Origin: Marsupella aquatica
Taxonomy: Eukaryota; Plantae; Marchantiophyta
DNA: 64,000 bases
Assembly (NCBI GenBank): GCA_973895155.1
Contig: OZ316895.1
Coordinates: 8,358,184 to 8,422,183, forward strand
Direction: 5' to 3'
The position numbers were made by a program, and so were the translations under genes. Below the pieces are notes generated by a model, which was given only the letters and a program-made list of their open reading frames with translations, had not been told where the DNA came from and ran no database searches. Shown piece after piece: positions 1,715-59,097 of the stretch; position 1 is the first letter of the stretch; each line of letters opens with the position of its first letter.

Positions 1715-1980
1715 AGCTAACAGATATGATTATACGGTGCTACAGTGCTCTAGTCAATGTTGAGGAACTTTCACTCAACCGAAGCTATTACGTAAGGAAT
1801 TCTAGTCCTATGCTAGATTATGATCACATCAGGGATCCTTTCTACCTGAGTGTATACTGTAGGAGTCGAGCTTAAGAAAGCTATTGCTATGTGATTACGT
1901 CAGGGAATCTCTCAACCTGAGTATACACTAAGTCTAGTTTCAAACGTAGAAAATTCTAGCGTGGATCGAGTAGAGCCTTA

Positions 1981-5111: not shown

Positions 5112-5131
5112 TTTTGACTGACTGGTTCGAT

Positions 5132-5175
5132 TCAACTCAACTCAACTCAACTCAACTCAACTCAACTCAACTCAA
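5132..5175. repeat. (CTCAA)n pentanucleotide microsatellite in the P450 5' leader
   Basis: About 8-9 consecutive CTCAA units. Confidence 0.9.
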
Positions 5176-24018: not shown

Positions 24019-25642
24019 CTATGCAATAACGTCTAACCTGGGCTCATAAATTATACCCTCGATGAATTTATGTGTCCTACATTCCCGAGCTTTAAAAGAG
24101 TCTGGCAGCTTACGCCACCTCTTCTGGGCGAGATCATAAGCGAGCAACTTGAAAGGGCCCCGGTGACTGATGCTGAATGCCACACATAAAATAATATCAC
24201 CATATTGGCAACACTTCATGAGCACCCGCTCGTCCTCCTGGCATTTGAAGTATTCCCGGTCACAGTAAAACTCTACGAACATATCTCGGGGCATAGTGTC
24301 CACCTGCTTCCAAGCGACACTGAGAGGATTCTGCTGCTGCACCAGCTCCCAGATGCACACGCTGTCGATTTTGTAGTTCTCTCCTAGCACGCCTACCAGC
24401 AGAATGTGGCCCTGGTACTGTACAAGCTCCTCGATTCCTACTGTATGAGGCAGGGGAGCGTGGATCTTATTCCAAACTCTCTCTTTCAAATGGTAAGTCA
24501 GCAATAAGCTCCTCTGGTCAGAGCACCTCACGTAAAGCATGCCATTGCCATACACCGGTCTTCTCTTGGGATACCTGGCCAGGAGAGAAGTTTCTGATGA
24601 ATTATCCACACGTGAAAGAGAAAACTTGTGCTTTGCTCAAAATCACATCACTGAAGGTCTTTCATACTATTAAATCACCCCATAACATCAAAATCTAACG
24701 AGGCAAACAAGGACAGCGCAGAGTTAGATTATCCCCGTTAATGCACCCACACAGAGAAGACAATCCATTCCAACTCTGAAATTACTACTAAAGTTTCTGA
24801 GATTGTCAAAGTATTGATTTTCCAAAGGGATGGACTCTAATGCTCTTCAATAATTATGCCAGAATGAAATCAGGAGATGATGGATTAGTAGAAGGCAACA
24901 AATGATCAAAAGTGGTCACAAAATTTCTCAGACGTCAATACGTGTAGACGCTACATCAACGATCTCCTGCCGAGGAGGGCTTAAGATAGAAACGTACCTA
25001 GCAGGAATGATGCCGCTCGTGCTCCAGCAATCGGTTCCCGAGTCATACACCTCCATGGTCAAACTGTCACCGCCATTCTCGCCGGGCACCATGCCAGCCA
25101 CGAACACCTTGTAGGAACTCGTAGCTCGATCCTCCATCACCATCTTCAGCACACTAATGTGGGAGGAAGTCTTCAACACCAGAGGCAGCTTCCGCAGAGA
25201 TTTCGTCAGTGGATTACAGACGAACAGAGTGCGCAACCGGTTCTCGTACACGAAGTAGCACACCAGGCCTCCGTCGGCAGCCGTTGGGTAGGGATTCAGG
25301 CTGCACAGAGGAGCAGGGAGCGGAATCCGGTGCCAATTGTTGCACTGGGGATCGTAGGTGGCCACGATCCGGTGCCCATTTATCCCCAACCGCCCCAAAT
25401 TGGCCGTCACGACGCAGAACCAGACATTGTTGTTGTGGCTGTAGATTGTTCCTCCTGCTGCTGCTGTTGTGGCTGCGGCTTCAGAGTAGGCCTTGAGGAA
25501 GGTCGGCGAGTAGAGGAGTGAAGTCCAGGCCCGACACACGGACCGGAAGCGGAACACACTCTGCACTGGCAAGCGCGCCAGCACGCTCTCGATCAGATGG
25601 TCCGGTAGTTTGGAGAAATCCATCATCGCTCCAGCCGCAGAG

Positions 25643-25675
<33 letters not shown>

Positions 25676-25986
25676 TCTGAGTAATAGTAATTCTTCAGTG
25701 ATCCCCCCACCCTTTGCTTCCTCGCAACCATCCCTTGCCCTCCTCCCCCTCCCCCTCCCCCTCCATTCTCCAATCTGGGTCGGACTCGGACTCGTTCATC
25801 TCTCTCCCTTTTCCTCATCAGCGGACTCTCCATGACGCGTCGCTGAAGATCATCATCTAGATTCATCATAGTCTGCGGCATTGTTGTTGCCACAACAACA
25901 CCTGTAGACGATTTGGCCTGTTCCGAATTATCATTGCCATCCTTACCTTCTTCTTCCTCCTGCTCCCTTGCGCTTCCCCTGATCAT
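24019..25986 (-). CDS. F-box protein with kelch/beta-propeller-like C-terminus, ~514 aa. Exons 25986-24998 and 24574-24019
   Basis: F-box FSKLPDHLIESVLARLPVQSVFRFRSVCRAW, plus ADGGLVC, VCNPLTK, MEVYDS and C-terminal EGIIYEPRLD. A GT-AG intron joins IIPAR/YPKRRPVYGNG in frame. The start codon is uncertain. Confidence 0.85.
25642..25680. repeat. (GAGCCT)n coding repeat (Ser-Gly tract in the F-box protein)
   Basis: Hexamer repeat encoding SGSGSGSGSGS on the - strand. Confidence 0.85.
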
Positions 25987-27463
25987 CACTCCTAACCCTA
26001 TCCTTCGTTCTTTGCCTAACGGCCCACATTCACTCACCTGCCCCTCCTGCTGCCACTGCCGGATTCTTTCACTTCAGGACTTTCTGCTGAGTCCCGTTGG
26101 CAGACCGTCTCATTACTTGGGGAGGCAGGCGGACGAGTGTAGAGAATTCACAGCACAGCAGAGGTCACCAAAGTGTCTCACCAGAATGTCTCAGCACGAA
26201 ACTGGACTCATGAGCAGAAATATGTTTCAGCCAGATTCAGCAGTTATCTGCGCTGGCTGAGCATTGAGCAGGTGAAAGAGCACTTAAGAAAGAATTCATC
26301 GCTGCAACCGGTGATTCGTTCATACTGCTCGGAAGAGCGCTCCAATCATATACCATCCCATACACAGGGAAATGCTCCACCAATTGGGAAGAGCTGGATC
26401 AAATTCCTCCCCGGCTAGAACACAATTCCTCTTCCAGCTAACTTGTGCATTACTGACTGTCACCAGTCATCATTCTCCACCCAATTGCTCAATCAGAAAC
26501 AGACAATGCCCGATTGCGAGATCTCAGGTCGTGAGGAAGGGAGAAACCCACACCCACCTGAGGAAGAGCACTGTCGAGTTTTGCCCACAAATTCCAATTC
26601 AACTGAGAATTCTCCGACGCCGCCCCTCTCGAAAGATCATAGCTCTAGCAACGGAACAACAATCTGATAGCGAGATCTCAGGTCGAAGGAAAGCATTAAT
26701 CCATTTGCCCCTAAATTCCAATCGAACTCAGATTTCTCCAAGTTTCTCCTCTTGAAAAACTCTCCTCTAGAAAAACTCAGACAGCCAATTACGGATCTAA
26801 TTCCAGCTGCCAAACTCCTCAGATAGTCTCCGAGGCAATGAGATGTGTGGCAAGTCTCCTGCTGAGACCAGTCGTTGAAACAAACAAAGAATGAGGTAAA
26901 GAGTAATTAACATTTGGAAGTTCTAGAATTGATGTATCACTGTTTTGCATTAAATGTTAGATTATTAGGGGTAGAGTTAGAGACTCTTGTAAATTTATAA
27001 ATAACAAGAAAATTACGCGTCACTGGGCATTTCATGTTCGTTGGATTTTATTTATCGATGGTGTAGATCGTGCAACGTGGGTTGTCACTCGTGTGATGGT
27101 TGAGAACACACGTGTGACTAACATGAAGAATATTGATCGTTTCTATGCACAAATGATACATGTTTTATGGTGCCAAATTCTAATCTAAACTTGGATAGTA
27201 CATAAGGCAAAAATGTGACAAGAATTATTTAGAACCATTGACAGTGTTTTATCAATGGTCAGCACTGTGTAAAGTGTACTTTGCTTTGTGGGCCACTTGA
27301 TCATTTTTGTCTGTCATTGATATGTGTTATTTTACATGTCACAATGCAGATTTATCTATCGTGTTTAGTGCAAGATCTTGAGCTGTTGGCACGCCACGAT
27401 CAACATTCCTGAGCTTTGCATTTTTGCGATAGATTGGTGAGAGGTAAATATTCTCTATGAGCT

Positions 27464-30400
27464 ATGTCTTTACTTTTATTAAACCTGCATCGGGAAATTG
27501 CGCGACAACAAACATTTAATCTGCAAAGGAATTCAACTAGACTGTCTGCAAGGCATTGGCCGAATGTTGATATCTTATGTAGGGAATGGAAGGGCCTATG
27601 TCAGAAAACCATTTGGAACATGGAAGTCTGTGGAAATTGTGGATTTGTATGTTATAGAAATAACTTAGAACGGAAATTGTTTGAAATTGTGCGTGTAGAT
27701 AGTACAGGAGTAGCTCCGTATGCATATTGTAATGCATTTCTAATACCTTACATACACGTTGATAACGTGCATTACAATATATGCATGGCTTGTGTAAAGG
27801 ATAGAGGTAGAGGAAGTCTATTATCCTTCATGTCACCTTCATATATTAGGTCTATTCCGGGGTCTATTCTAAAAGCAAAACCCCTGTATCTACAACTCTT
27901 ATCTTTAATAGATTGTGGATTGGGGATAATAAACAAGTTTAATGGGTTTCATTCAGGTTTTGTATGCAACGAGAGCTTACTAGATAGTCCACTTATTTGT
28001 TGGAATCTGGATACATTACAGTGTAATAATATTGGTATGATTATGAATCAGGTTTACGAGGTGTTTGCGACTAACTTGCTTGTTAACAAACTATTTAAAA
28101 GATATTTCTGTCTGCTTGAAACGTCGGATCCTTCACTTGGAGTTTGTATTCTAACACCTAATGCAGTGCACAATATCTTAGAAACGCAAAGAGAAACAAA
28201 GATTACAACTTATTCTATGACAGTCAATCCGTATGATCCAGATATTCAAATACTTCATGATGTGTCATATTCAATACCTATATCTAGGAAGCGTAAGTAT
28301 GATCTTTTTGAGTCTGGAAACCTGCACTGTAAGAATGCTTTATTACTATGAGAGCCAATGGTGACTAACGGGGACGGTGTGTCTGAAGACCACGATGTGA
28401 CATTGGAGACAACAATGTTTCCATTTTTATTCCCTTATCAACATGGTCATTACCGCGGTGGTATAACATTTGCTGAGTATATTAAGAGAATAACTCAACA
28501 ATTGTTTAGTCCATTTACATTGTACAAACCATATATGCTTATTAGTTACCAACTACGACAGTCGATACAGCTAGCTTCAATGACAAAAACTTATATATTA
28601 GATAAAGAGTATAATACACTTAGAAGCGTTAAACCAAACCTAACAGAAGAGGAAATTTTCCGATTGATGATAAAGCAGAATATATCATGCTCAGTCCCGG
28701 GTAGTCTAGGTTGGCATAGTCGTCATTTGAAGGACCTGATGTGCATGGTTCAGTACTGGGGTTTGCCTTCTTTTTTCCTCACTCTTACTTGTGATGACGT
28801 GAGCCCTACTAGATGGGTAGAGATTGATGACCTAGAGAAAGTTGTAAAGTATATCAATGCAACCTCAACATGGAAAGATTGTCCTGTAGAGTGTGCAATG
28901 ATATTCCATACCTGTGTTCAAAGTTTTCTGAGAAGGTACATTCTCTGCGGTGAAAATGGTGTCTTAGGAAAAGTGGAACATTACATTGCCCGGTATGAAT
29001 GCCAAGGTAGGAACTCTTTGCATGCACACATTCCGCCTTGGTGTACTTTAGATGATGTAGATAGGGTCAGTAGTGAGATCTGTGCATACATTCCAGCTCA
29101 TTTTGATGATAGTTCTGGTAAGTTTATTGAACAGTTTGATAACCCGATGACTAAATTATTGTATGGATATGTCACTTCAAAGCAACTGCATCGTTGCAAA
29201 GGAAGGAGTGTGTATTCATACTGATAGCGATACCGATTTACAATATTGTAAAATGGGTTTTTTGCATGAACCACACATGGAGAAGAGTCCTTCTATTGAC
29301 CCTCGAAGCGGAAAATGGCGATATTTTTGTCCAGGAGTGGAACACAGAAATGTTGTTCCATATCATCCTGTCATTTTATCATTGTGGGGTGCCCATATGA
29401 ACCTCCAAAGAGTGACAAATGAAGCATGGTCTTTCTACCTACTTAAATATGCTATCAAATGTGAACCAATGGGTTCATTGAATATTAATCTTGAAAATGC
29501 TAAGTCTTTAGGATTAGATGCATTGAGTCATACCCAGTTAAAGTTGGTTTCCAATGTTGTTCTGTCAAGATCTATTTCTTCTACAGAAGCAACACTAACG
29601 TGTTTACAAATTTCTACTATAGATAAATTATCATCGGTCACTCTTGTGGATTCCTCTCCACCAGATAGACGTACTTCTCTATATCGAAAAGCTTCGGTAG
29701 TCTATCTTCACCCTACCCAGGTATATGCTTTGAGACCTTTGAGGTTAGGAAACTTGTCATTCTATGAGTATTTTCGGAATTATGAAGTGTTGCCTGAGAA
29801 AAGTAGAGAAGCAGATTTTGTGGATGTAGACTTTCAAGGGAACTATGTGTTCACTACTACTAAGTTGGTATGCTTTTCAGACTTTCACCCTGTGTACCAT
29901 TCTAATCAATTTTTTTTATAATGTTCTTCAATCTTAGACATGTACATTTTCGGTCTGAAGTTGAGCTATTGCTTAGGACAGATTTTGATTGGACATATCT
30001 CCATGAATGTGTGTATCGGAAATTAATTAGTTGTGATATTAAGGATATAGAAAACCTGATATGTGATTACGTAGATAAACACCTATACTCTTCTCTGTAC
30101 AAAGCAGAGATGATTGTAAAAATTAAGAGTCGTATTCCACCCACATTGTGGGATGAATCATTTGCAGGTCCTTATGTAGTTTCAAATAGATCTTTAAGAC
30201 AATCTGAAGTTCAGACAACTACCATTAGACCACAACACTTGTCTTTAAGTGATTTTACTCTGACTTGTGATCAGTCAGAAGTGTTCTTGAAACTGAAATC
30301 TCAAAAGAGTGGTCTACATATGATTACAGGTTCCCCTGGAACAGGTAAAACCTTTTTTATGGGTTTTATGAAGAGCTATTGGGAGCAACAAGGAAAGAAC

Positions 30401-32233
30401 GTGCTTTTAACATCCACTACAGCAGTTGCTGCAATTAGACTAGATGCTTCGGCAACGACTGTCCATCATGCATTCAAAATACCAATTAGAGGAGCTTTAT
30501 TACCGTTGCATAGAAGTAATAGTATTTTTGATTCTTTGGCTTCTTCTCATGTTACAATTATTGATGAATGTAGCATGCTTACACCAAAAATCATGAAAAG
30601 CATAGCTTCATGATTGCATGAAGTTCTTCAAGGTAACGATCGCAAAAATGATCCATTTACAGTGAAGCTAATTGTTCTGGTAGGAGATATGTATCAATTG
30701 CCTCCTGTGTGTAATCATGAAACTAAGTATATATGTACTCAGTGTCATTTATCTTCGTATTCATTATACAAACATATGCAACGGTATCACTTGACATCTG
30801 TTATTCGTCAAGCATCTGACCCTCAATTCTTAACTTTCTTAAATTCTATCCGTCTAACTAATCCTAGTCAACATGCAATAGACGACTGCCTGCAACAATG
30901 TTTTCTCTGAACAAGAAGGATACAGATTTGTTGACGAGAATACTAAGATTATTTGTTCGCATAGAGATAACGTGGCTAAATATAATACAATGTGTTTACT
31001 AACTTTTTTTCCTATAGATCATATAGTAGAAGTTAATGTCCATACAAATGCTCCTGCTGAGAGTGGTCAAAAGCAATGGATCTCTGACACAAAGTTTCAT
31101 CAACTAACACATATAGCTATTGGTTGTAGAGTTTTATTGACTGACAATATTGATATTTCAAATGAAGCTGCTAACGGTAGTAGTGGAGAAGTACATGATT
31201 TGCTTTTTGATGAGAATGACTTGTCTACAATAATTGTTAAACTGCATATAGCATGCTCATCCTGGAACATGCTTTACTTTTTGTCTTGTAATGATATTAA
31301 GTGGACAAAATTAAAGAGTAAGACTAGAATACATATTAAATGTGAATGAAATCAAATAATATAAATAAAGTACATACAATAAAAGCACATAGTGACCAAT
31401 GGAAAGTACAATTTCATTACACAAAGTTGCTACGAGTTGTGCACAATGAAATCAAATAATATAAATAAAGCACATGCAATAAAAGCACATAGTGACCAAT
31501 GGAAAGTACATTTCTATTACACAAAGATCCTACGAGTTGTGCACGTATTTCAGTGTCTTATTAATGACTCTTATTCAATAAAAACCATAAACTTAGGAAA
31601 GAAAGCCACAAGGGGAGCTTAAGACAAAATGTGCTGACATTTCTTAGAATCATTCCTCTCACTCATGAGTATACTTAAAAGCGGTAGAAAATGAAACCCT
31701 TAGTTTCTCTCTAGGACTTAACAAAGTTTACAAATTAAGGGGGCTGCCAAAATAAATTCAAAACACTATAGAATACCAAAAATTTAAAGGGGTCCAAAAA
31801 TGAATCAAAGGTACATTAAAATAAAAATTCATGATACACAAATATGAATAAGACAAAACATGAGAGTTGGATTCACCATATAGTATAGCAGCTTCATAAA
31901 TCTAGCTTTTTGATGAGAATGACTTGTCTACAATAATTGTTAAACTGCATATAGTAACGGCAAACTAGTAAGAGTTGTGAGATCTTGTACTAAATACAAA
32001 AGAATCAAGAACATGATAGTTACCAGAAGTCAACATTTCCACTAATGTTAGGATATTCGATGACTGGACATAAATCACAAGGATGTACTTTAACTGAAAA
32101 AGTTCTGGTTGTGCTGACTGAAGCGTTTGCTCCTGGTCTAACATATGTGATGTTGAGTCGTGTTACAAATAGGAAGAATTTAAAAATTGTGGGTAAGTTA
32201 TCTCCTTTGGATTTTACTGTCTACAGAGAATGA
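27464..32233 (+). pseudogene. Helitron-type Rep/Pif1-helicase gene, disrupted by frameshifts, a stop and an insertion
   Basis: Rep motifs FPFLFP, WGLPSFFLTLT, ECQGRNSLHAH (HUH) and YLLKYAIK. Pif1 motifs GSPGTGKT, IIDECSM, GDMYQLPPV, IRQASDPQF, GYSMTGHKSQG and YVMLSRV. They are spread over consecutive ORF fragments. Confidence 0.92.
31252..31904. mobile_element. 653-bp insertion inside the helicase gene, flanked by 50-bp direct repeats
   Basis: gctttttgatgagaatgacttgtctacaataattgttaaactgcatatag occurs at 31202-31251 and 31905-31954. The insert is A-rich with an internal ~100-bp tandem duplication (~31345-31545). Confidence 0.85.
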
Positions 32234-32258
32234 GATGTAGTAAGTTGGGGAATGACAT

Positions 32259-33116
32259 GTGCAATCTTTTGAAATGGCACCAAAGAGGAACTTGCACAAC
32301 ATAGAGATCTTGAAAGCAATTGAGAATGTTGTTTTCAATTACGGAAATGGTACACAACAATCTCCAGTCAACTTGGCATCTGAATTGTCGCCTGAAGTGA
32401 AAGTAAGAGCAACGGCAACAGAACACGGAACCCCGATAGCCGAAGAGTTTTTACGAATGATCCTTGTTGATATCAAGGATGAAGACACAGAAGATAAAGG
32501 GGAGGAACCAATGAAGGAGCCTACACCAAAACAAATTTGTTATGCAGATTCATTGGGGATAGAGATGACAGAGTGGGAAGGTGGTATAAGTGTGAAAGGC
32601 ATGAGTCCTCTCATTGAAGCTAAAAAGGAATGGCAACAAATGTTTTTGGATATGCATGGAGAGTATCCAGCATGTGGTATGAATCTTACTTTCTAAATTG
32701 TTTAGCTATATATACATGGCAAATTCTTTTTACTAGATTATATAATGTGTGATTCTTATGTACATCTGGACTTGTGTGCAAGCATTGTAAAAGAATGTCT
32801 ACGTTACAAACATGTTTCATTTGATAATGAAACACTGACAAGGAAAGAGAGCATGAAAATACTTAAATGTCATACAAGAGGAGCAGCGATAGATCAGTTG
32901 AGACAGCTACATCATTCATTCAAAGTACCTGTGGACATTTTGGTCAATTTGGCAGCAAACCAGACAGGGAAAGTCATTGCTCGAATGAACAACAAACGAG
33001 ATGCAGGTGCATTACGAGATATTCCTAAGCGTTTTTTGTTTGATGATGGTGCTACTTCTAGCTTTCCTGGAAGTATTAAGATAGAAGTATCTCCAGGAAA
33101 ATGTAAATGTACATAG
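32259..33116 (+). CDS. Two short hypothetical ORFs (32259-32696 and 32745-33116) directly downstream of Rep/Hel
   Basis: Stop-free 145 and 123 aa ORFs in AT-rich DNA, co-oriented and closely packed after the helicase. No recognised domain. Confidence 0.35.
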
Positions 33117-33229
33117 AACACATACGTTTTAACTACATGTAGTGTTATGTGGATGCTATCATAAGCATGAGACTATTTGCTACTTTAATTTGTGGAGATC
33201 AGCACACAAAAAACATTTCACCACACTAT

Positions 33230-34446
33230 ATATTGTACTACCTTTTAAGTACATGACTAATTTGGTGACAGAAAAAGTAATTGCTTGAGTGAATAGTCCA
33301 TGCTAAATTCCATGGCAAAGTGGTCCCGGATGACCATGTAGTAGTGTTGTTGAATATAGTGATTGTATCTGATTGTAATTTGTCATTTCCGAATAGAGAC
33401 GATGATCCACCTCAGGAAATAATTGCAGATGCAGTAGGATCTTTTGTGCTCTGGCCATCAAAGTGTGTTAGTCTGTAGTGACTGAATGCAAGTGTAGTTA
33501 GAATCAAGTGAATTGTGTCACATTTTGACATTGCCTTGGAAAGATCCAAGAAATATCTGTACCAATTTTTCCATTTGGTAAAGAGGATGAAGGAGCCATT
33601 GTGTGTGACATTGATATTTCTGAATTCTGTATGTATGAAACAAGTGATTGATGTGTGTGACATTGATATTTCTGAATTCTGTATGTATGAAACAAGTGAT
33701 TGATGTGTGTGACATTGATAGTTCTGAATTCTGTATGTATGAAACAAGTGATTGATGTCAAACTATAGCTCTATGGTGATTGTCTATGATACTTGAATCT
33801 GTTTTGTATCATTTCAGTATTAGTGTGTATGGTATAGAGGAATACTTTGTGACCTTCTTTGTAGTCTATGATGTTTGAATCTGTGAATTCATATTAGTGT
33901 ACATGGTATAGAAGATGGCTTTCTGAAACTCTGAGTTCTAATGTTAACATGATGAATGGTGAGCTTATAGAGTGAGTTCATTCCAAGTACACAATAAAAT
34001 ATGAATGGAATGTGTTATTTGTGCACAAGAGTGAGTTCATTCCAAGTAGTATAGTGGGGTCTTCATCACTCATATCCAGTTGACATGAAAGACTTATACA
34101 TACCCCACAAAGTGTTTACTTTAGTCATTTTATAAACCCACAAAGTATATTTAAAGACTACCCTCCATAACCTTTCTAGTCGTTCCCAACGACTCACCAT
34201 CGCAGCCTATAAAAAACTGAAAACGACTCACCAAAGCTACCCACACAAAGACTACAATAGACTGAAAATCCAGTCTATTAAACGACTTACAAACCAGTTC
34301 TATAAAGGACTCAGTTGATTATAGTAACAAAACATACGACTCGCAGTCCTGTAAAGGACTGGAGTCCTTCCCAATCGTTTCCAAGTCCTATACGGTACTG
34401 AATAGTCGTTTAATGGGGTCTAAATACCCCCCAGTTTCTACTAGTG
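33230..34446 (+). mobile_element. 3' end of a CACTA (En/Spm) transposon
   Basis: Translation near 33300-33478 gives AKFHGKVVPDDHVVV...FPNRDDDPPQEIIADAVGSFVLWPSKCV*, a Tnp1/En/Spm ORF2-type C-terminal domain. Subterminal (AC)GACTC-type repeats lie at 34150-34410. The terminus tttctactagtg is the reverse complement of CACTAGTAGAAA. Confidence 0.72.
33601..33758. repeat. 52-bp tandem repeat, 3 copies
   Basis: gtgtgtgacattgatatttctgaattctgtatgtatgaaacaagtgattgat occurs three times with one substitution. Confidence 0.95.
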
Positions 34447-34954
34447 CTATGACAATTATATCTTTGTGAGACAATCTAGATTACTGCATTTTGAGTAGTA
34501 CTGTGAATTTGATTGGACTGTTAATTTAAATGTGTTTCAGGTGAAGAATCTGGTTGCAATTCATGTCACAGTAGTGTTATGACTATTTATAGCATGAATA
34601 CTAGTACTCAAACTGAATGCATAGACAATCCAAGAATTCATCGTAGTGGGCTAGTCAGCGGAGGTTGTGAAGGAAAAGCCATGTATCGATGGAAATATGA
34701 TCGGTTGTTGAAAATGTTTTTCAAGCCAACATTCCAGGAAGAAGAGGCTCGTATGGAACTTTTGGAAGAGCTTTGGGATGTTTATCAAATAGTTGAGAAT
34801 AGAAGTTGTCAAAAATGTAGTGCAAAATAGACTGAAAAAAATGTTTTTAATCATTTGTAAAGGTCTAGCAATGTTAAGTTTTGATGATCACTACTAGAGA
34901 CTACAAAGAAATCATTTTTGAAAGATTTATAAGTGGATGTACAATCTAACAAAT

Positions 34955-36350
34955 TTAAGCATTTCTATGATTCCTTTGTAACAATCTATCCAGTTTTTTA
35001 TTTATTGTAAGAGCACCTACATAAGTGGCATTACTAGTTGAGCTCCTGTATGCCATGCCATGTACAACATCACTACGGAAAGCAAAGAGGTTGCCATCTT
35101 CAATTCCCAGACGCATTCCATATTCAGGAATTACAAATCGATTGGCAAAATTGTTGAATCTGGATGACTAGCATAACATAATGTAAACTCTGTCGTGTCT
35201 TCATCTTCGTGCATTTTGGTGCAGAAATCTTTGCTGATGTAAAGTTGATAAGAGCTTGGCCCTTTACTTTTCAATTCTTTCTCAAAAAATGACATATCGT
35301 GGTCTTCAGGAGCAAGATATTGGTGGGAGTATTTGAAATAACTTTCCAACACTGTAGGGCACCACCACATATAGAGAGCCAAAATGATGTTGACAAGCTC
35401 AAGATGAGAGTACTTATCAACTAAATCCTCAAAAGCGGAAGTCATGGATTGTACACAGTCTGTTAAGAGATGCCTGATTTTTGTTTTGTGAGTATAAAAA
35501 GATACTCTTTTGGACTTGTATGGATTATCAAAAGGACCAAATCCTGTCATGTAACTCTCGATGATGCCTTGTTTTTTTCCCCTTTTAATCTCGTAATGTG
35601 AATCAAATAAGGAAACTAATAAACTTTGAATGAAACTCATAGTTTCACATGATAGTTTTTGATGGCGTACAACCACTGCTATAAGATAAGGCTTGGATCC
35701 TGACCTATCGTAAAAATATGTACAGTTACGGGTTTTGTCCATAATCACAAAATCATTAGGGAAATCCCTAAATATAAACCCAACATTAGCAGAGGAAGAA
35801 CTAGTCTTCTTACCATTCCATGTTCCAAGGATGCACCCTTGTAATGTGCAACATGAGAGGAAGAGATACGATGGACAATTACTTCTACTTTAGAAAACAA
35901 ACTACTTGTAGCACAAGAGGCTTCTTGAACTTTTCTCATAGTTTGAAGTTTTCTTTGAGTATAGTGAGAAAACATTCCAATGAACTGACATATGGGTTTT
36001 GGTAAGTTCAACCTACATTGATGATTGGAAAAAATTTCATCAATTTCTTTCCATGTATCCGGACAGAACATAGGAACTTCATTTTGTCTTTCCTTGCAAT
36101 TTTTATACCCATTCTAAAGTATAGCTTTGGAAAACTTTGAGGATCTATTGAGCGTGATATTGAGTACTTTTGTAACAAAAAGTACAAGAACTTTTTCGTC
36201 TCTTAGAATCCAAGACAATGCAAACCTTTCTTTTCCAAAGTGCAATTTGCTCAAGTATACCCAAATTTGAACAAATAAATTAATAGAGAAATCATCTCCC
36301 CATGCTTCACATTTATTTTCAATCAGGTGAGTTTTTTTTCGTTTGACCAT
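34955..36350 (-). pseudogene. TET/JBP-like 2OG-Fe(II) dioxygenase gene, disrupted (one in-frame stop, about two frameshifts)
   Basis: Reconstructed C-terminus ...YMTGFG...SFY...QLYISKDFCTKMHEDEDTTEFTLCY...(frameshift ~35150)...FANRFVIPEYGMRLGIEDGNLFAFRSDVVHGMAY...TYVGALTINKKL...*. The HxD His is at 35209-35211 and the distal His at 35060-35062. Confidence 0.62.
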
Positions 36351-36380
36351 CTGCAAGAAAACAAAAATTATTAAGTTCAT

Positions 36381-36672
36381 AAAGTTACAACTTGGGTCAA
36401 ACAAGACGCCAACTCTTACAGATGTGTGTACAAGAATGATTTAATTTGTACCTTTAAAAAAAAATTAAAACATATATTTTTAGGTTTGTAAAGTTACAAC
36501 GCGGGTCAAACAGTACACCGACCCTTTTGGATGTGTGTACCGGAATGCCTTAATTTGTAACTTTTCATAGTTTTTCTCAAACATATTTTTTAGGTTTGTA
36601 AAGTTACAGCTGAGGTCAAACAGTACACCGACCCTTTCGGATGTGTGTACCAGAATGCCTTGATTTGTAACT
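36381..36672. repeat. Three ~110-bp tandem units with internal inverted repeats
   Basis: Units begin aaagttaca at 36381, 36490 and 36600, contain ggtcaaaca..gatgtgtgtac and end tttgta(ac). Confidence 0.85.
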
Positions 36673-38760
36673 AAGTTTTAGAATTTTTTCAAACTCTACT
36701 ATAAGATAAAGCATAGATACATGTTTGAAAAAATTCTAACTCTACTATATAAAGACATACCTGGGCAATAAACACGAACGATTGACGAGAGAGTGCTCTG
36801 ATCCCAATTGGGCGTGAAGACGGTGCTCTGAAGAGAACTTAAGTAAGTAGCACAAACAGTTACATGAACCCTTTCACAAGCAGTAAACCCTTGCCTGCTG
36901 CAAGTAATTGGAAAGGTCTTATGTATGCGTAAGTAAGCACTACTAATTGAACCCTCCGTGACCATTTGTCATTCCCTTGATCCCAAACTAACTGTAATGA
37001 GCGGCAAATCCTCTTCCATCGCGGGTAATATATGTACTCTTTCTGCAATTCTGCTAAGTCAGTCGCACATGGTTCATTGGAAAGTTGACAGCCTCTCACA
37101 AGGACTATCCACGGTTGCTATCAATTCAAAATTAATAGCTGATGGCGGAAACCATGCACCTAGGTAAGTGTTGTGCAATAGGTACAGCCGAGTTGGTCAA
37201 CTGGTGTTAAATTAAGTTCAATTATGTCACTCCAATGACAAAGTATTCCAGCACCGTTTCAAGCGATGTTTAATTTCATTCACTTATGAATGAAGTCGCT
37301 TCGAAAACAATCAACAACAACTTTTTGAAATATGAGTCTACGTCATTAGATACTGTATTGGGAATACCTTGCCAGGTTCTTAAGTTTCAAAGCCATTTAA
37401 TTTGAAGACACTGACTTTCGACACTAACTAACGCACTAGCCTGTACTCTCGAATAAGTGACACTGATGTGCAAGTACAACTTATATTCAGGGCTGGACTC
37501 TGAGTCAAAAATAATTTGAGGACTGTCGGACATAGCTCAGATGCGGTCCAGATAACACTGCACAAACATAAATATTAGCACTCTCATCTGTTGAGGGAGC
37601 AGCAACACCGATCAAACGGATAGGAAGTTCAGACACTGGAGGTGTGAGGAAACACAGAGATTCGATTGTCCACATGTTAGACAAATTTCCACTAAGGATC
37701 TACTGGAATTTAACGGGAGCAAATACTTCAACGGGAGCAAATGGAAGCTAGTTGTAAAGTTAAAACCACAAAATGATATATTAGATAAAGCGTACAACAA
37801 GGAGATCGAGGTTCATTCCGTCGAGGCTGAAATTGGTCTTAAACCTGTCAATAGTAGATTTTGATCAATTGCATGGATCATAGATTTCCAATTAGGATTC
37901 CCAATAGGATAGCCTGAGAAGAACAATAGCCCTCCCTTTTCCACTGGACTTGAGGATAATCATAAAAAGAGCAGGATGACAACTACAGGTTTGAGTGAAC
38001 CCTATGTTGGTGCATCGTAGAGATGTAGCGCAGGAAGGTTGCCTTTCAATCATCCAATCACTTTTTGATGGATCATTCCATTCCAAAAATGTTCTTCGCA
38101 CAATCATACAATTGATACAGAGCAGTATTCTCATAGTATGAGAAAAAAACTTACAGAGTTTGCTTGTAGGGTGTATGACTATAGGCCCACGATGTAGGCT
38201 ATAGGTCAGCTCGCTTTTCCATTGAAAGTTGAAAGGCACGGTCAGCATAATCCCCTTGAAACCGGCGGTGATGATTCTGCTCCAGTCAATACCGGAATTC
38301 AATGGAGATTCCACAGACACTTGAGGCACAAACTTTATAACAAACGGACTACAGAAAATTTAGATAGTGCAGTAGTAGACCATGAAGAGAACAGTGAGCT
38401 CCAATTTCAACGAAGCAAACATGAAAACAAAGAATCGCAAAGATTGAGCACAAAATCAAGAAAAGATACGGCTGCTCAGATTCCTGAGAAGGAGTTTATG
38501 GATCTCGAAACCCTAGAGAAAAGCCCTCATAGACCTAAAGAATGGTTCTGGAAACTCTGATGGGCACAATCGGACCCAACAATAACACAAAGGCCCTCTG
38601 TCAAGAGAACAATGTTACTTGATAGGACTCTTGAGTTTTGGGGTACGTTGATTGAAACTCTATCATGGTCAATCAACGGTTTGGATCACTCAGGGGTACT
38701 ATGGAGCAACACTTTTCTTTTGGGGGCCCATCAACCAAACGGGCAACCAAATACCCCTAA

Positions 38761-39060
38761 ATTGTGCTATGGAGCATAGTTTGATGTGTGTATTATCACC
38801 CATCGACACAAAGGTTTGACAACATGCCCCCATGGAATCACAGCACGGGGAAAATTTGGTGCTATGAGTCCATGTAAGCATCTTGTCAAAAGTAAGTATA
38901 GAAATTATAAATTGTGTTAAAGAGCATAGTTTGATGAGTGGATTATCACTCATAGACACAAAGGTTGACAAGATGCCCCTATGGAATCGTAGAACCCTGA
39001 TAATCTGGTTTTGTGAGCCCATCTAAGCATCTTGTCAATGTTATATATAGTGTTATGGAG
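38761..39060. repeat. Degenerate ~150-bp tandem duplication
   Basis: attgtg..gagcatagtttgatg..gattatcac.cat.gacacaaagg...atgcccc.atggaatc...aagcatcttgtcaa occurs at 38761 and 38911. Confidence 0.8.
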
Positions 39061-39842
39061 TCTAATTTTCTCTAGTGTTCTTGGAACCCTGAAGAAAAGC
39101 CCCCATAGATGTACAAGGTTGGTTCTGGATATTGTTTGCATATATCAGTTTGGGGAGCAGGTTAGTGAAAACGTTCATCCAAAGCTCTTTTATGGTTGAA
39201 TTGGATGGCGGTAGTAGGCTAGCAAAGATGGGAAGAGCCCTCACACACAAATTAAGGAGGCCAGGTGAGCAATTGGATAGTACGGGTTTGTCTAAAACAT
39301 GCTAACAAAGAAATGGTGGGTTGACTAAAACCCAACCATACCTTGACTCCTTTGTGCAGGCCTTTTGCAAATATTTAGAAAAAAATAATTACTATTTTGG
39401 AAGGGGGGCACAATAGGCAAACAAAGCCCAAAATGCCAATCAAATTGTAAAGCAAAAGTTGAAAGATAGTCTACAATATACCACACAGCCTGAGTGTAAA
39501 TTAACAATGAAATTACTTTGCTAACCTTTATGATTATGGCCATCCAGGAAATGTTGTCTGGGCATCTTAACCCTAAATTAATCCCAATAATCACTTTCCT
39601 CAAATGTTATTTGTACAAAACAAGTAATGCCAATTGTAGAGTCCAGCTGATAGAAATGATAATTCTATTTGAAATGACACCAGTTTGCAATTGATTGATG
39701 TTTGCAATTGATTGATGTTTGCAATTTATTGATGTTAAGGTCACAATTGGGGTCAAATTCCACCTCACTGACAAGTGTTAGCCACTTTGGGCAAAAAATG
39801 ATCCAGGCTTTTTTTCTTGGATTAGCCAGTTTGTCACCTTGT

Positions 39843-40160
39843 CAGAGACCCCATTAGCTGAAATCTAACAATTATCCTTTATTAATTTTTCACCTAGCAA
39901 CAGACCCCATTAGTCAAAATCTGCCAGCTATCCTTTAAATCTCCCTACCCCATTAGCCCAAAACTAACAATTATCCTTTACTACTTTTTCACCTAGCAAC
40001 AGACCCCATTAGTCAAATCTGCCAGTTATCCTTTAAATCTCCCTTTACCCCATTAGCCCAAAACTAACAATTATCCTTTACTACTTTTTGTTCTAGCCAC
40101 AGACCCCGTTAGTCACAATCTGCCAGTTATCCTTTTAACTCTAGGGAGATATAACTCTCA
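39843..40160. repeat. Array of short subterminal-type repeats (agaccccattag / acaattatcctt)
   Basis: About six alternating copies, ending in ctagggagatataactctc. A related terminal sequence occurs at ~49048-49110. Confidence 0.7.
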
Positions 40161-40694
40161 GAAATTAATCTAAGAAATCATCCTTCACACAAGGTGACAT
40201 AGGCCACCTTCGCGAAAAAGGAAAAACCTTAAAATATACTCTGGCACGCGTCTCCCTACCCCACAAAATACAGAGTATTATCTTCAACCCTGAGAGATAA
40301 AACCCTGAGCACAGACCGGTTGGGCAGGTTGGGCATGTTGGGCATGTCCGAGCCAAACAGAGCACTACAGAATCGGCATGCTCACACTGAACCGCCACAG
40401 GCAAATTCTCTTGCTGCGCAGCAGATCGAACAAACTGGAGAATTGGCTGTAGAGTGGACTCCTGGAGCATCCGGATCAACCAATATTTCATTCGGCTAAA
40501 CACCATCTTCGTGGGAGACGCCATGAAATGAATTTGTGTTTTGGTCTGACAGAGATTCATCGATGTGGGGAGCCGATGCCTCGCATTGTGTAGAACCCAG
40601 GCTGCATTTTCGTTCATGCTGGGACGAGGCTGATGCCAGGAATTTGATGGGTTTCCTCCTGGTAGGAATGTGAGATAGGCGAGAGAATTTTACC

Positions 40695-42711
40695 ATGGAT
40701 TGCATTACCTGCTGCAGCTCAGCGACCGCCGTCAGCCCTTCTTCTCTCCAAGCGTCTGTGGTGTTCGAAGACTGTTCCTCATCTATGATCTGCTCCGTGG
40801 CCTCCCTCCGTTCTGGAGGAAGCTCGAGATTCCCAGAGAGGTATTTGGGGAGCTCGCTACATTTCAGGAATGTCAGTAGTTCTTCTTTGAGAACCTCTGC
40901 AATTTTTTCTTCCTCTGCTCCTCTAGTTGTGCGCAGCGACGCTTTGCAAACACACGATTTCCCCTCTCCTAATCCAAGAGATGAGGATAGCGGCTCTCAG
41001 AATTTGTCTGCAAAGGAGAGAAGGAAGTTGAGGAATGAAAGACGAGAAGCAGCGAAGCTTGCCCAAGAGGTGCCATGGAGGGAGGTGGTGCAGGATAGAT
41101 TGCTAGAGAAAAAGAAGAAGATTAGAAGCTGGCAAGAGGATGCTGATATCAATCTGTGTATTGCCAAAGGTGTCCAGTGGTGGATGATACAGACTACTAG
41201 ACGGTATGAGTTTGATGTCGCCGAGCAGATAGAGATAATATTCCCGGAAGAATTTCCAGGAAGGGAATTTCAGGTGCGTCCTTCGGATTTCCTAGCATTA
41301 CCACCTTTAAACGCTTTCTTTGATTTATTTCGACCTTACATGCTGGGAGTATGGAGTCCATTTGAAATGCTTGGTCAAGAGATGCCTAAAGAATTCGAAG
41401 AGATTGTCGGCATGATCGTTGCATTTGTCATCGAATAATTCTGATTTTGGAAATTCATGATCGTTACCTAGGCAATAAAGTCTAATAAACCTTGTAGATA
41501 TTCCTCCAGGATGATTTGCTATGTTCTTTGATGTGGTCTTGATCGATACATTTGATACAAACCTGAACCTCCAGAACTTCTTCCATGGGGTTGTTTTCGA
41601 GGTCAAGCACAAGGATGCCTAAGGCTGTAGTTTCAGAGATTTATTTGCTAAAAGACCTTCTCTTGATGGTATTCAGGTACTTGTACCAACAGTGCCAGTG
41701 ACGACAAAGTTGAAAGACGGAAGTGTGTCTCAAGCAAGAAAGAAACTGTACGAGGGCATTGTGCTGCTGCGGTGTCTTCTTGACCGTGACGTCTATTTCA
41801 TGGTCAAAAAAATACCGCGTGCTTATGAGTTCTTCGGGACCCAGGCAGGTCTGAGGTATGGTGAAAGGATGTCCAACCTGTCAATTGTGTGTCTCAAGGG
41901 CACGAAGTTTTTCATGTGAAGTCGACAAGGCTTGCGAGTCAGCCTCTCGTGTTGAGTAAAACCAATGGTTGAGTGTACTCTGTACAGGAATTACTTATTA
42001 ACCTCAGGGTAACTGAATGTGTTGTTTTCGTTATGTGTGTGTCTGCATAAGGTTCCGTGACTTCCATTCGGACCACCGTGAGGTTTGCGTAACTTGGGGG
42101 GCACTAGGAAAACTCCTATCATTGCTGTGATTTTGCAGCTTACAGTTGGATCCTTCGGTTATATCTTTGTTGTACAGCTTGCAGCCGATAGTCATGCCTG
42201 CACCCGTGTCAAATTTCAACATGGAGATCATGATCGAAAAGATCCGGAAGCAAGAGGAAGAGTATGAGGAATTCAAGGAACAATGTAGGATAGAACTTGA
42301 AGAGCAGAGGAAAGAGAAAAAGAGGAAGGACGAAGAGCAGAAGCGAAGAGATGTGGAACAGGAAATTCTGAAGGCAAAGGGTCTGGTACTTACAATCGGT
42401 TCTACTGTCAGGGTGTTGTCAGGCCCCTTCCTGGACTTCACAGGGGTAGTGATTGAGCTTCTACCTCAAAAGAAGGTGAGGTTCTAGAGACACGTATTCC
42501 ATCATATTCACCTGGTCGTCTTCTTTGTTGGAGCACTTTGTCTGGTGCACAAGGCTGGATCTTTTGAATAACGCCTCTCCTTTATTGATCGCAGATTAAA
42601 GCCATCGTGACTGTTTTTGGAAATGACACACTGATTGTGTTAGACATAGGGGAAGTGGCCGTCGAAGCTGCTGCAAGTGACCAAAAAAGGGGAATGACGT
42701 ACAAAGCTTGA
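40695..42711 (+). CDS. PTAC13: Plastid NusG-family protein (plastid transcriptionally active chromosome 13), ~390 aa. Exons 40695-41273, 41677-41855, 42178-42475, 42595-42711
   Basis: Ser-rich transit peptide, SAKERRKLRNERRE, NGN domain (GVQWWMIQT...FP..EFQVLVP...KLKDGS...KKLYEG) and KOW motif GSTVRVLSGPFLDFTGVV...VTVFG. The spliced frame totals 1173 nt. Confidence 0.88.
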
Positions 42712-52468: not shown

Positions 52469-52834
52469 TTAACCCCTCGCACATCGGGTGATTGCAGAAC
52501 ATCCCCTTTGATACGGTCGGACTGGTCCAGAGGCGGACCGGCAGTTCGGCGTGTAGTAAGGCCTTCCAGATTGCGGTGGACATGGAACATTACCTGCCGT
52601 TAACGCACCATACCCAATGTACGCACCGGAACCTGCGAGAACCCTCCTGGTGCTTGCATCGGACTGACCTCTACTGCTCCAGGCCCATGAGAGATCAGCC
52701 GAAGAAGAGGCCGACGATAACCAGCCCAAATCAGCTCGCGCCCTGTCTACGACGACGGCGAGAAAGAGCACAGAGAAGAACACGACCACGCATACATTCA
52801 CTCGTCGGCCCGTCAGCCCATTGTTTGGTCCCAT
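52469..52834 (-). CDS. RALF: RALF (rapid alkalinization factor) peptide precursor, 121 aa, intronless
   Basis: Hydrophobic signal peptide, RRVL (S1P site), YIGY motif, VPC...YY..NC....GPV.PY.RGCSAITRC with four conserved Cys. Confidence 0.93.
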   Translation of the reverse strand: MGPNNGLTGRRVNVCVVVFFSVLFLAVVVDRARADLGWLSSASSSADLSWAWSSRGQSDASTRRVLAGSGAYIGYGALTAGNVPCPPQSGRPYYTPNCRSASGPVRPYQRGCSAITRCARG

Positions 52835-55409
52835 AATGCCTCGCCCCAGCGATCAGATCAGGCCAACTTTGCCGCTCCTGCTGACCGGCTGCTGATCTTC
52901 TTCTTATGAACGCCGTGCGCGCACTGAACTGATCACTTGCGCTTCACCTGACTCACTCCCTAAAGAGAATCCCAGACTGCTGGATGCACCGACGAGAAAC
53001 ACAGAATCGAAATGCCTATCGGCAAGAGTTCGCACCAGGCGCATGCGTGCGGACGACAACTGAACTGAACAGAGAAGAGAAGAGCAACCTCTTGAACCTC
53101 TAGGAAGTCCACGAAACAATGAATCCAGCCGCCGTTGGTGGCAGTGATTTTGACCTGGAGCTAGTTCCTGAGAATGACCATCTCATTCCTGACCAGGATC
53201 ATGCTACGTCCTGAGAACGAGCAAAAATGTAGCTAATAAGCCGAGTGCGCGTCCCCCTCCTCCTCCGGTGCTGCTGCCACTGGAGCTAGCAGCTGTAGCT
53301 AGCGACTCAAATGCAGCTTGACCGAGTCGATGATCTCCGTAATCGACAGGAAAGTTCAGGACTTCAGGAGGAGGCCCACTCAATTCAATCAAGCCAGCCG
53401 GAAGACGCGCCGCGATGGAGGCCTCATCTCGAACGCCACAAACAAAACAGTAGTGGAGGAGTGCTGGATTGTTGGTGGCTTGTTGGTTGCATTGAGTGAT
53501 TGCCTCGCCTCCTTGAGTCCTTGCCGACCGCACCTCCTCGGACTTCATCTACGTACCTCATGAATCATGATTACTGTTCGAAAACGCAAATGCCCGCCAG
53601 CCATGCTGCAGCAGTGCAGCTGCAGTTGCTATCAATGCGGGACGACGGAGGTCGGAGGAGGGCGAAGGGTCACCGACTCATCACCGGTGTTTTGGATGGA
53701 GGATGCTGCGGCCGTATCGCGGCAGACTGTGAGGACTGAGGACTGAGGACTGACTCATCCGAGGAAGCACTCGATCCAATATAATAATAATGCGGGTCTC
53801 AAATCTCAAATATGTTTTCCCGCTCCTAGTAACTAGCCCTATTACCCTTTACTATATTTCAAACTGAGAACCGGGTCATGTCTCAGGCGAAAAATCATTA
53901 CAAAAATTCCTTCATTTTGTTTAATTTTTGTTTTTTGTCCACGGCTCATTTCAGTTTTGTCTTTGTATATAGTGTCACTTTTACCTATCCTCATTTAAAG
54001 TTTTGTCCTTATTGAAACTCACTATCAATTTTGTCTACTTATTAGGAGTCCAGGTCTAGAGGTTTCACTCTAGACCTAGGCCCTGAAGAGTAGGCTTTAG
54101 TTTGATCTTTCATAATAAGCTTTTTAATTCTAGGAAAACCCAATTTTGGAGAGCATGTTTTCTCACTCCTACACGTAGTTTTAATCTTAGGGAAACTAAT
54201 TTTGGAGGTATTAGCCTCACTGCCCCTTATCTGCAAAGTGAATACAGGTGAGCTATGGGATTCCCCTTTCCCCAATTTTGGATGTACTAGCCAGACTACC
54301 CATTCTCTGAAAATGAAAATGAAGAGAGGTGAGCTATGGGAGTGAAGCACACAAGAACTTCAATGGGGAGGAGCACAGGACACAACAGATGTGGAATAGA
54401 GGAGCACAGCACACAGCCCCGTACCCTAAACTCAATTCCCAATTTTCAGTACACTTTTTTCACCCACACTCCCAAAGCACCCCAAACTTAAGTGACACCC
54501 TCAGAACTACGGTCTTGAGACTTCAGTCTAGACCATGGCCCTGGAAAGTAGCTTCTCTCCACGCTTTATTCATAAGATTTGTTTGATAGTCCACTAAACC
54601 AAACTTTGCTCCTGAACAACCCAATGAGGTTTTGGGTATGTTGATTAAAGGTCTATCAACTCTTTGGGTCTCTTAGGATTCCCTTTGAGTAATATTTTTC
54701 ATTTTGGGGGTCTACCAAGCATATACATTTTCAATTCTGGGCAAACTTTAATCAGGGTTTTTGGGAGCAAGCACAATCTTGCACGAGCCATATCCTAAGA
54801 TCTATATGTGTTATGTAGGTGTCACATGGCTGTCTTCGGGGTCATGCGGTGCTCAAGGTACTGCTACAGGATCTGCATTAATTCCAATACTTTTATTTAT
54901 ATACATTTGCACATGTTATGATGACACCCAAATGTAAGACATGTGCATTGTTTAGCAAACACATCTTTCTGAACCTGAATGGTCCGAATGCAGCAATGTG
55001 CTGACAACTACTCTTTAAGATCTCTAGGTTTAGAGCATCTCCAGCGGAGCCCCCAAACAGCCCGTAAACACCAAACCATTGAGTAGATCGGGTTTTACAG
55101 AAACCAGTCTCCAGCGGTTGCGCCATCCGTATTTTTTTAGCGGATGCCGCTACTTTTGCCAACTCCGCGCCGCTACTTTCGCGCATGAAGGAGGTCGCCA
55201 TTTGAAGCCCCTCCGCCAGCCCCCAAAGTGATCAATGTTGGTAATCGGCCCACACGGCACTCGCAATGTGCAGGCTTCACCGCTCGCGCCAGAATATGAA
55301 CTCTTTCCCGCTTGGACTGTCAATGAACAGTTCTCGTGGGCCAGGACATATCGTGCAAAATTGACATTGCACACGAGGACTCCATTGAGATTGTGTGTAC
55401 CTTGCTCTG

Positions 55410-57499: not shown

Positions 57500-59097
57500 C
57501 CAGACCCTCTTCAATTCCAAAGGTGGTCAACAATGTCATTTCTTAGACAAAAATGGTTGGCCTTGTTGTTAATTTCAGTTGTTGCAGCAAGGAACTCCAA
57601 CCACGACAAATTTCCCCTATTGACTCTTGCAGCACTAATTCTTAAATATAGAGGGAAATTATCATCCCTTTCATCCTCAATATTAATCATATTGTGAAGG
57701 ATGACACATGCAAGTAGAATGCTAACAATGTTTTTTTTTCATACCAAGACCGTGCAGGCCTCTTCACCTCGGGGGGTTGACTATCAAAAATCTTAGGAAC
57801 CACGTGCAATCCAAAATAGGTATTTTTGGCAGATTTTAACTAAATTTTAAAAAAGTGTAGGAGGCAAAAGAAGGTATTATAAACTCATGTTTATAGAATA
57901 TTCTTTAACATATACCTTTTATAAAGTAAAATAGGTTATTAATATTGAAAATAAAGAATATTCTTGGAATATTTTCTTTATAAAATAGGTCTATTTATAT
58001 TAGGCTAGGATCGCACGTGGTACCCCAAAATATACACTTAGTTAATCCCCCGAGCTCTTCACTATCTTAAATCTAGCTTGGAGTACCCCAAAAGCCCTCT
58101 CCACATCATTCCTTGCTGCTTCTTGGTACCTTGCAAAATGCTTCAACTTCTCAGATTGTGGCATGTGCACAGTGGATATGAACATAGACCACTCAGGATA
58201 AATTCCATCAACCAAAAGATAAGCTTGTTTGTACTCTGTACCAATCACATGGAAACTGACATTGGCTGAATCATTACGCAACCATTCATCTAGAAGTGGT
58301 GAGCGGTCAAGGACATTGAGATCATTGTTTCCCCCAGCCAGTCCAAAAATGGCATGCCAAATCCACAATTCTTGATCAGCAATGGCCTCCAAGATGATGG
58401 ACTTATTCTTGAATGTCCTTGTCAGTGTATTGGCCTTGCCAAGCAACAAGGCAATTCTTCCATGCCCAGTGCATGCAATCCAATGAGCCAAACAGGAAAA
58501 CCTCTATCTACATTAATTTGAAGATGATTCTGGAAATCTTCAGTAGTTGGCTTCCTCAAATAGTGACTCATACAATTCTCTAATGGCTTTCACAAAGCGA
58601 TACAGAGACTCCAATGCTGTGCTTTCACCAATTCTACAATACTTGTCCAAAGCATCCGCCCCAATTTGATAAGCTAATTGCCTCAATGTTGCAGTCAATT
58701 TTTGATGCGGAGACAAGCCTACTTTCCCTGCAGCATCAACCTTCAGGCAAAAGTAAGTGTCATGTGCACACACATCAACAAGAATTTTTCTAAACAAACT
58801 GCTACTCATTCTGAATCTCCTCCAAAATTTCAACTCGTCATAGGTTGGACTAGCGGAAAAATAATCATTCCAGAGGTCTTCTGCCTCCTTTTCTTTACGC
58901 CTCTCCACATTCTCACTCCTGCCTGGCCCAGACCCTCTGTGCTTTCTTTTCCTGGGGTGCCTGGAAAAATTTGCAGTAGCAAGGGGTCCACTGAACATCA
59001 TCAACTCCCAAAATCTTTGTTCCTCATCCCATTCAGCCTTCTCCTCTTCGAATTCTTCATCGAGATCCGCCAACCATCTTTCCAGTTGCTCCATCAT
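57500..59097 (-). pseudogene. Harbinger/PIF DDE transposase, frameshifted and MITE-interrupted
   Basis: LWNDYF, FWRRFRMS, DAAGKVGLS, LRQLAY, ILEAIADQELWIWHA.FG..G.NNDLNVL, YLLVDGIYP, DVERAFGVLQARF. Confidence 0.9.
57768..58054. mobile_element. 287-bp MITE with an 8-bp TSD, inserted in the Harbinger transposase
   Basis: TIRs ctcggggggttgacta / tagttaatcccccgag, with inner inverted accacgtgcaatcc / ggatcgcacgtggt. TSD ctcttcac at 57760-57767 and 58055-58062. Removal restores KIVKRPARSWYE. Confidence 0.9.

Follow-up and report, generated by a model that had tools for sequence, protein, structure and literature searches.

The window, by which we mean the whole 64,000-nt stretch of DNA analysed here, carries on its minus strand a decayed TET-like gene that lies tail-to-tail with a Helitron Rep-helicase gene (RepHel) and a second open reading frame (ORF2), all within a multi-copy block (Table 1). 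The flanks hold plant genes encoding a RALF peptide (E 3e-19), an F-box protein, a P450 and a plant transposon protein, which identified the host as a land plant. An earlier note on this DNA, made from the sequence alone, had described the TET-like gene as a hidden gene of a plant genome. The DNA is indeed that of a land plant, but the gene most likely belongs not to the host but to a Helitron, as cargo beside RepHel, and so falls in a known class of TET-carrying transposons.

Table 1. Coordinates of the features found in the window.
Feature	Coordinates	Strand	Details
TET-like pseudogene, piece 1	35839-36350	-	ATG at 36350; N-terminal part helical; early TAG at 36114-36116
TET-like pseudogene, piece 2	35135-35838	-	start of dioxygenase domain; KDFC, HEDED (His at 35211); indel pair 35560/35572
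TET-like pseudogene, piece 3	34955-35134	-	core strands; distal His at 35062, then a conserved Arg five residues on; stop TAA
Predicted 5'-UTR intron of TET-like gene	36351-36760	-	donor CAG/GTATGT at 36760, acceptor TTGCAG at 36351; from sequence only
Decayed Helitron Rep-helicase (RepHel)	27461-32233	+	PF14214 E 3e-22, PF05970 E 3e-12; several stops and frameshifts
Second cargo ORF (ORF2)	32274-33116	+	opens with MAPKR; ~280 codons, with two in-frame stops; no Pfam family
Nested insertion, very high-copy repeat in helicase gene	31246-31950	.	705 nt; empty-site joint 31245-31951 in X1
Nested insertion, very high-copy truncated CACTA-ended repeat	33299-34446	.	1148 nt; empty-site joint 33298-34447 in X1
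Multi-copy block interpreted as a single Helitron	26900-40060	+	approximate; from GC and contig depth; right end least sure
Cytochrome P450, host gene	3384-5141	-	single ORF
F-box protein, host gene	24931-26073	-	
KOW (NusG-like) exon, host gene	42131-42484	+	
RALF peptide, host gene	52472-52852	-	
Broken PIF/Harbinger-type transposase	58045-59133	-	PF04827, E 1e-48
Copia-type retrotransposon gag-pol fragment	2-1729	-	by eye, from translation

Frame and lesions of the TET-like pseudogene

Three listed open reading frame fragments and one unlisted frame had been joined into a single gene in the earlier note, and this was borne out by tblastn. Two intact relatives, P0001 (449 aa) and P0035 (459 aa), each matched the locus in three collinear pieces lying in three frames. 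The pieces matched by P0001 ran from 36269 to 35826, 35841 to 35137 and 35137 to 34964 (summed E 6e-83), with 46% identity over 240 columns in piece 2 and 48% over 58 in piece 3. With an X placed at each break, the full reading of the gene comes to 465 positions, and its alignment to P0001 spans 452 columns at 38% identity (E 4e-112). The collinear match of the window gene to intact relatives is far beyond chance, and the minus-strand pieces between 36350 and 34955 are almost certainly one real pseudogene of ~465 codons. The ATG at 36350 after a TTGCAG acceptor and the in-frame TAG at 36114-36116 are both present as described; TTTTCTTGCAG directly precedes the ATG, the acceptor is pyrimidine-rich, and the stop TAA ends at 34955. 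All of the motifs that had been claimed were found in the window copy, namely HED at 35211-35203, the distal HG at 35062, FVIPEYG, GNLFAF and TYVG. The predicted 5'-UTR intron contains three ~110-nt tandem repeats (36358-36685), the copy number of which varies among related contigs.

The lesions were compared with contigs of related copies in runs X1 to X4, which come from two studies. Position 36115 was C at all contig depth in 4/4 runs, giving TGG and not TAG. One extra base was present at 35134 in all four runs and at 35838 in three, the fourth being without cover. The earlier note had placed frameshifts near 35830 and 35150; two frameshifts exist, and the reads put them at 35838 and 35134, so that the position 35150 was wrong. 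The contigs of X1 to X4 also revealed two single-base indels that offset each other, at 35560/35572, which the earlier list of lesions had overlooked. A fifth run from a third study (X5) agreed at the sites that it covered at low depth and reads TGG at the stop, while X6, with just a 151-nt piece of the TET-like gene, was left out as evidence. Contigs of related copies thus lack the stop and both frameshifts. The stop and the frameshifts are private to this copy. In the run contigs similar copies are merged and rare variants lost, no contig spans the TET-like gene, and further broken copies with deletions of their own are present in the runs. The ancestral TET-like frame was open, and since contigs merge copies and other broken copies occur, this is established for the collapsed contigs and not for any one living copy. 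The window copy had CpG and CHG values of 0.39 and 0.61, whereas two host genes gave 0.59-0.74 and about 1.1. This depletion suggests that the window copy was probably methylated itself while decaying.

Protein family, predicted fold and co-substrate

A phmmer search with the 216-aa middle piece against 1.84 billion representatives returned 29 relatives at E<=0.001, the full-length ones including P0001, P0035 and P0015 (427 aa). Residues were counted in an alignment of 24 rows (A4), many of them partial, so counts refer to the rows that cover each site. The first His was kept in 20/20 rows, the Asp two residues on in 19/20, and a second Asp, four residues after the first His, likewise in 19/20 (HxDxD). 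The distal His was kept in 12/12, an Arg five residues past it in 10/12, and a final Asn in 11/11. Conservation of HxD and the distal His, on which the family assignment had been made to depend, therefore held among the relatives, and the HxD...H iron triad is present in the window copy too. A quick tree of 18 rows, built with no outgroup, gave two subgroups. The second, more distant one (P0015, P0019, P0034, P0027 and P0029) is ~23-27% identical to the window gene and retains HxDxD and the distal His.

Sequence profiles did not recognise the family. The earlier note had looked to the TET profile PF12851 for confirmation, and this failed: among 24 sequences PF12851 had no match, PF20515 reached at best E 0.15 in one (12.5 bits against a cut-off of 27), and the AlkB Pfam profile had no match. 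When the pieces and relatives were run against Pfam, no TET or 2-oxoglutarate (2OG) family rose above cut-off, and a PDB sequence search with two profiles gave chance matches only, with no solved TET, CMD1 included. A word-based search for the 216-aa piece among longer proteins yielded 0/177 candidates, a search with profile A1 returned just 3 rows that were already known, and when metagenome and viral contigs were searched for loci with the gene, none of the pattern matches (142 and 45) was confirmed. Among viral matches with a name, a phage JBP1/TET protein ranked best. Atlas features pointed to PF20515 and PF12851 clusters at 0.92-0.94, a weak indication with recognition below threshold.

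The fold was assessed from AlphaFold models of relatives P0001 and P0003 (pLDDT 66 and 70), not of the window copy, against 48,161 solved chains. The P0003 model was nearest to human TET2 (PDB 9hxv; Z 15.1, rmsd 3.8, 218 aligned), CMD1 (Z 13.4, rmsd 4.2, 222 aligned) and Naegleria NgTET1 (5cg8; Z 13.0, rmsd 3.4, 189 aligned), TET2 and NgTET1 sharing HxD...H with the family; the best non-TET chain was an AlkB (Z 12.4, rmsd 3.5, 170 aligned). The P0001 model matched TET2 (Z 12.9, 223 aligned), CMD1 (12.6, 233), OsALKBH1 (11.4, 171), NgTET1 (11.4, 195) and CcTet (10.9). By Foldseek, all 12 rows listed down to rank 13 for P0003 were CMD1, TET2 or CcTet. For P0001, CMD1 tied with PolD and a plant auxin oxidase by E-value, and CMD1 and CcTet led by TM-score (0.31-0.33 compared to 0.17-0.26). 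The structure comparison (Foldseek, VIA-align) therefore agreed with the earlier expectation, the models being nearest to TET2, CMD1, NgTET1 and CcTet. On these models the family is very probably a TET-fold Fe enzyme. Of the earlier TET/JBP-like assignment, the part that rests on nearest solved folds stood and support from Pfam TET profiles did not. Because sequence matches in Pfam and PDB are absent and the canonical Arg is replaced, the family was filed as TET/JBP-like and not as canonical TET.

In TET2 and NgTET1 an Arg holds the C5-carboxylate of 2OG, according to passages of PMC7854593, and CMD1 cannot use 2OG and uses vitamin C because nothing basic sits at the C5-carboxyl position. The canonical Arg, at a position taken from the alignment and the predicted strands, was absent in all 12 relatives covering that strand, and Tyr was found in 10; Tyr also occupies this position in piece 3 of the window copy. 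The earlier remark that the usual 2OG-binding Arg is not obvious thus extends to the family, and its absence makes the use of 2OG doubtful. The two 2OG arginines of TET2 and NgTET1, which are host genes, and their base-stacking aromatic residue are not clearly kept; an aromatic residue with this role is not obvious in the TET-like family. The chief rival to 2OG-type oxidation of 5-methylcytosine (5mC) is one in which the cargo is kept and the chemistry altered as in CMD1, so that the co-substrate is not 2OG (ascorbate, for example) or the product is not 5hmC, 5fC or 5caC. Like CMD1, the TET-like family is without a basic residue placed for the 2OG C5-carboxyl, and CMD1 ranks first by Foldseek and second by VIA-align. 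The family nevertheless has no sequence similarity to CMD1, with which it shares 11-16% structural identity, and whereas CMD1 keeps an aligned Arg pointing away, the family has Tyr. Moreover, the Arg five residues past the distal His could take over 2OG binding, and several fungal PU- and PE-type TETs also appear by eye to be without the Arg. We consider altered chemistry unlikely, if the strongest of the alternatives.

The probable Helitron carrier

RepHel joins an HUH Rep domain (PF14214) to a PIF1 helicase (PF05970) and is collinear with the intact 1346-aa P0037 at 58-75% identity. A Ser precedes P/L-H-x-H in Rep motif 2 of the window copy and of 6/6 relatives covering the motif, and a Ser here marks the Helentron/Helitron2 group according to PMC4067079. 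Judged by its sequence, the carrier is of Helitron2/Helentron type. The C-terminal AP endonuclease of strict Helentrons was not among the domains listed, and P0037, the intact relative nearest to RepHel, stops once the helicase is complete. ORF2 is multi-copy, at the same depth as RepHel.

Two very high-copy repeats are nested in the block. The one in the helicase gene showed many loose ends and a bin depth of 8500, compared to ~60 in its flanks, and has at its borders a direct repeat of 50 identical nt (31202-31251 and 31905-31954), which is unusually long for a target duplication. The other sits between ORF2 and the TET-like gene, with a right end that reads CACTA on the minus strand; it is non-coding, with an internal 52-nt tandem repeat (33600-33758). 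That the TET-like gene is part of this CACTA-ended repeat was rejected, as the repeat is far deeper and the empty-site contig removes it.

The block spans ~13 kb and has a GC content of 31-42%, compared to 41-56% in most of the flanks. In X3, low-depth flank contigs (14-22) end at 26903 and resume at 40060, and the main contigs within the block have depths of 54-71 (RepHel 57, ORF2 71, TET-like gene 54-61, positions 39226-39659 65). The corresponding depths in X1 were 37-49 in the flanks, 112-157 in RepHel and 116-143 in the TET-like gene. Contig depth is a rough guide and not a copy number, and single-contig depth was used as a ratio, of ~3 between block and flanks. An X1 contig also joins 33298 to 34447 and so connects the side of ORF2 with sequence 3' of the TET-like gene; this joint is one contig with a short side of 35 nt and was not seen in X3. 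The matching depths, together with the X1 contigs that join across the nested repeats, point to one element of ~11 kb without the nested inserts.

It is improbable that the gene lies outside the Helitron, either as a separate low-copy mobile element alongside it or as a passively captured host fragment without benefit, even though scans of 26000-41000 found no Helitron termini (no CTRR-hairpin end and no significant inverted similarity between the ends) and the X1 joint is as thin as described. HMM, tblastn and motif searches detected the TET-like family at none of 62 loci that contain related RepHels (identity 27-48%, often short), which fits such a reading and indicates that the gene is not general to this Helitron group, these RepHels being more distant. 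The gene nonetheless matches RepHel in depth in two runs of two studies, shares its low GC with no host gene in between, and has related contigs in which the frame is open at the lesions of the window copy. In addition, no named host-gene relative was found among 20 proteins looked up. The TET-like gene is likely to be Helitron cargo that would have moved with RepHel as one unit.

Upstream of the TET-like gene, 37000-39800 is a multi-copy stretch of ~3 kb with short ORFs of no known family, inside which lies a 149-nt repeat with inverted parts (38758-39050). A further decayed cargo gene may be concealed here, or a separate repeat that starts near 38663. Tandem repeats of ~100 nt occur at 39848-40140, near the right end of the block.

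Proposed substrate and role, and known systems

The nearest structures and the carrier suggest a substrate and a role for the intact enzyme. It would bind Fe(II) through HxD...H, the triad being observed and the fold predicted. A methylated base would be flipped into the Fe site, and the methyl group of 5mC would be oxidised on the DNA of the element. The oxidised base might then be lost by repair, or not be copied by maintenance methyltransferases, and lower methylation on the element would keep RepHel transcribed and so counter silencing by the host. By analogy with the nearest structures, a methylated DNA base is a fairly probable substrate, and we lean slightly towards an anti-silencing role for the element.

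An Fe dioxygenase with another substrate, such as methyl-adenine (AlkB-like or CcTet-like), thymine, RNA or protein, is somewhat less probable again than a gene outside the Helitron. With the P0003 model, AlkB enzymes and prolyl hydroxylases came close behind the TETs (Z 11-12.4), and the margin of TET2 over AlkB chains is a Z of 1.5-2.7 with both models middling. CcTet acts on 6mA too (passages of PMC12730594), and the second Asp of the family stands at His+4, whereas in CMD1, NgTET1 and TET2 the Asp/Asn that reads N4 of 5mC is at His+5. However, TET-family chains came first in both programs with both models; AlkB chains rank under TET2 and CMD1 and have shorter alignments, the top ones covering 164-171 residues compared to 189-233 for the TET chains. 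Contamination, with a fungal or algal contig misjoined into the plant assembly, would suit the mostly fungal look-alikes in Atlas but is hardly credible, given that the flanks hold plant genes, that the block itself contains two nested repeats of very high depth in the same runs, and that these runs show 0 differences from the flanks across 610-2441 nt.

The whole reading, in which a dead cargo gene of a low-copy Helitron2-type element had an intact form with a TET fold that oxidised 5mC and likely countered silencing, appears to us evenly poised between right and wrong. A bolder version, namely a land-plant Helitron-borne TET-fold family whose co-substrate pocket is remodelled (HxDxD, canonical Arg absent, and the conserved Arg past the distal His), with a base modification new to plants and intact living copies, is unlikely. 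The window copy is defunct, similar arrangements are already known, and enzyme activity is predicted only. If the whole reading is true, an anti-silencing strategy of transposons in fungi and Chlamydomonas extends to land plants, and a concrete enzyme can be named as a candidate source of oxidised cytosines in some plant genomes. The absent 2OG Arg would make new chemistry possible, as with CMD1.

The closest precedents are fungal, and the comparisons with them draw on passages of PMC12730594 (Kojima 2025). There, TET genes are reported in 11 lineages of fungal DNA transposons, both Helitron groups among them, with Helitron1 of Puccinia graminis and Pezizales and Helitron2 of Agaricales as carriers and PU and PE as types; their function is said by Kojima to lack experimental validation, and these passages make no mention of moss or fern. 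Like the fungal Helitron TETs, the family described here is a stand-alone TET-fold gene in a Helitron, with a His-x-acid...His triad and with CMD1, CcTet, NgTET1 and TET2 as nearest structures. Its last strands resemble by eye those of the PU and PE types, several of which also have no distal Arg; in Kojima's table, again by eye, this residue is missing from three of five Puccinia Helitron TETs and from some IS3EU TETs. Unlike the fungal Helitron TETs, compared by eye and not by program alignment, it has a land-plant host, no match to PF20515 or PF12851 and an extra helical N-terminal region of ~150 aa, and it has HxDxD in contrast to the HxE of the PE type.

Chlamydomonas TET genes lie in Helitron2-2_cRei and Helitron2-3_cRei, and CMD1 in another transposon, according to passages of bioRxiv 2022.06.16.496473. 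As in the present case, these are green-lineage TET-fold genes on DNA transposons, most of them on Helitron2. TET has not been identified in plants according to two reviews (PMC6305559; PMC11066809). For fungi and Chlamydomonas, Helitrons with TET genes are in print, whereas for a land-plant transposon we found no published report of a TET gene within the open-access literature. The Iyer/Aravind surveys reportedly may include TET/JBP genes from the moss Physcomitrella, and for this reason we do not claim a first in land plants.

Anti-silencing proteins and TET effects on mobile DNA have been described in other settings. A viral TET was linked to low methylation of the integrated virus by a natural deletion (passages of bioRxiv 2026.10.09.758095). 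Arabidopsis VANDAL elements with VANC, as cited in passages of PMC12730594, likewise represent a plant DNA transposon that encodes its own anti-silencing protein, although VANDAL is a MuDR element and its protein is unrelated to the TET-fold enzyme predicted here.
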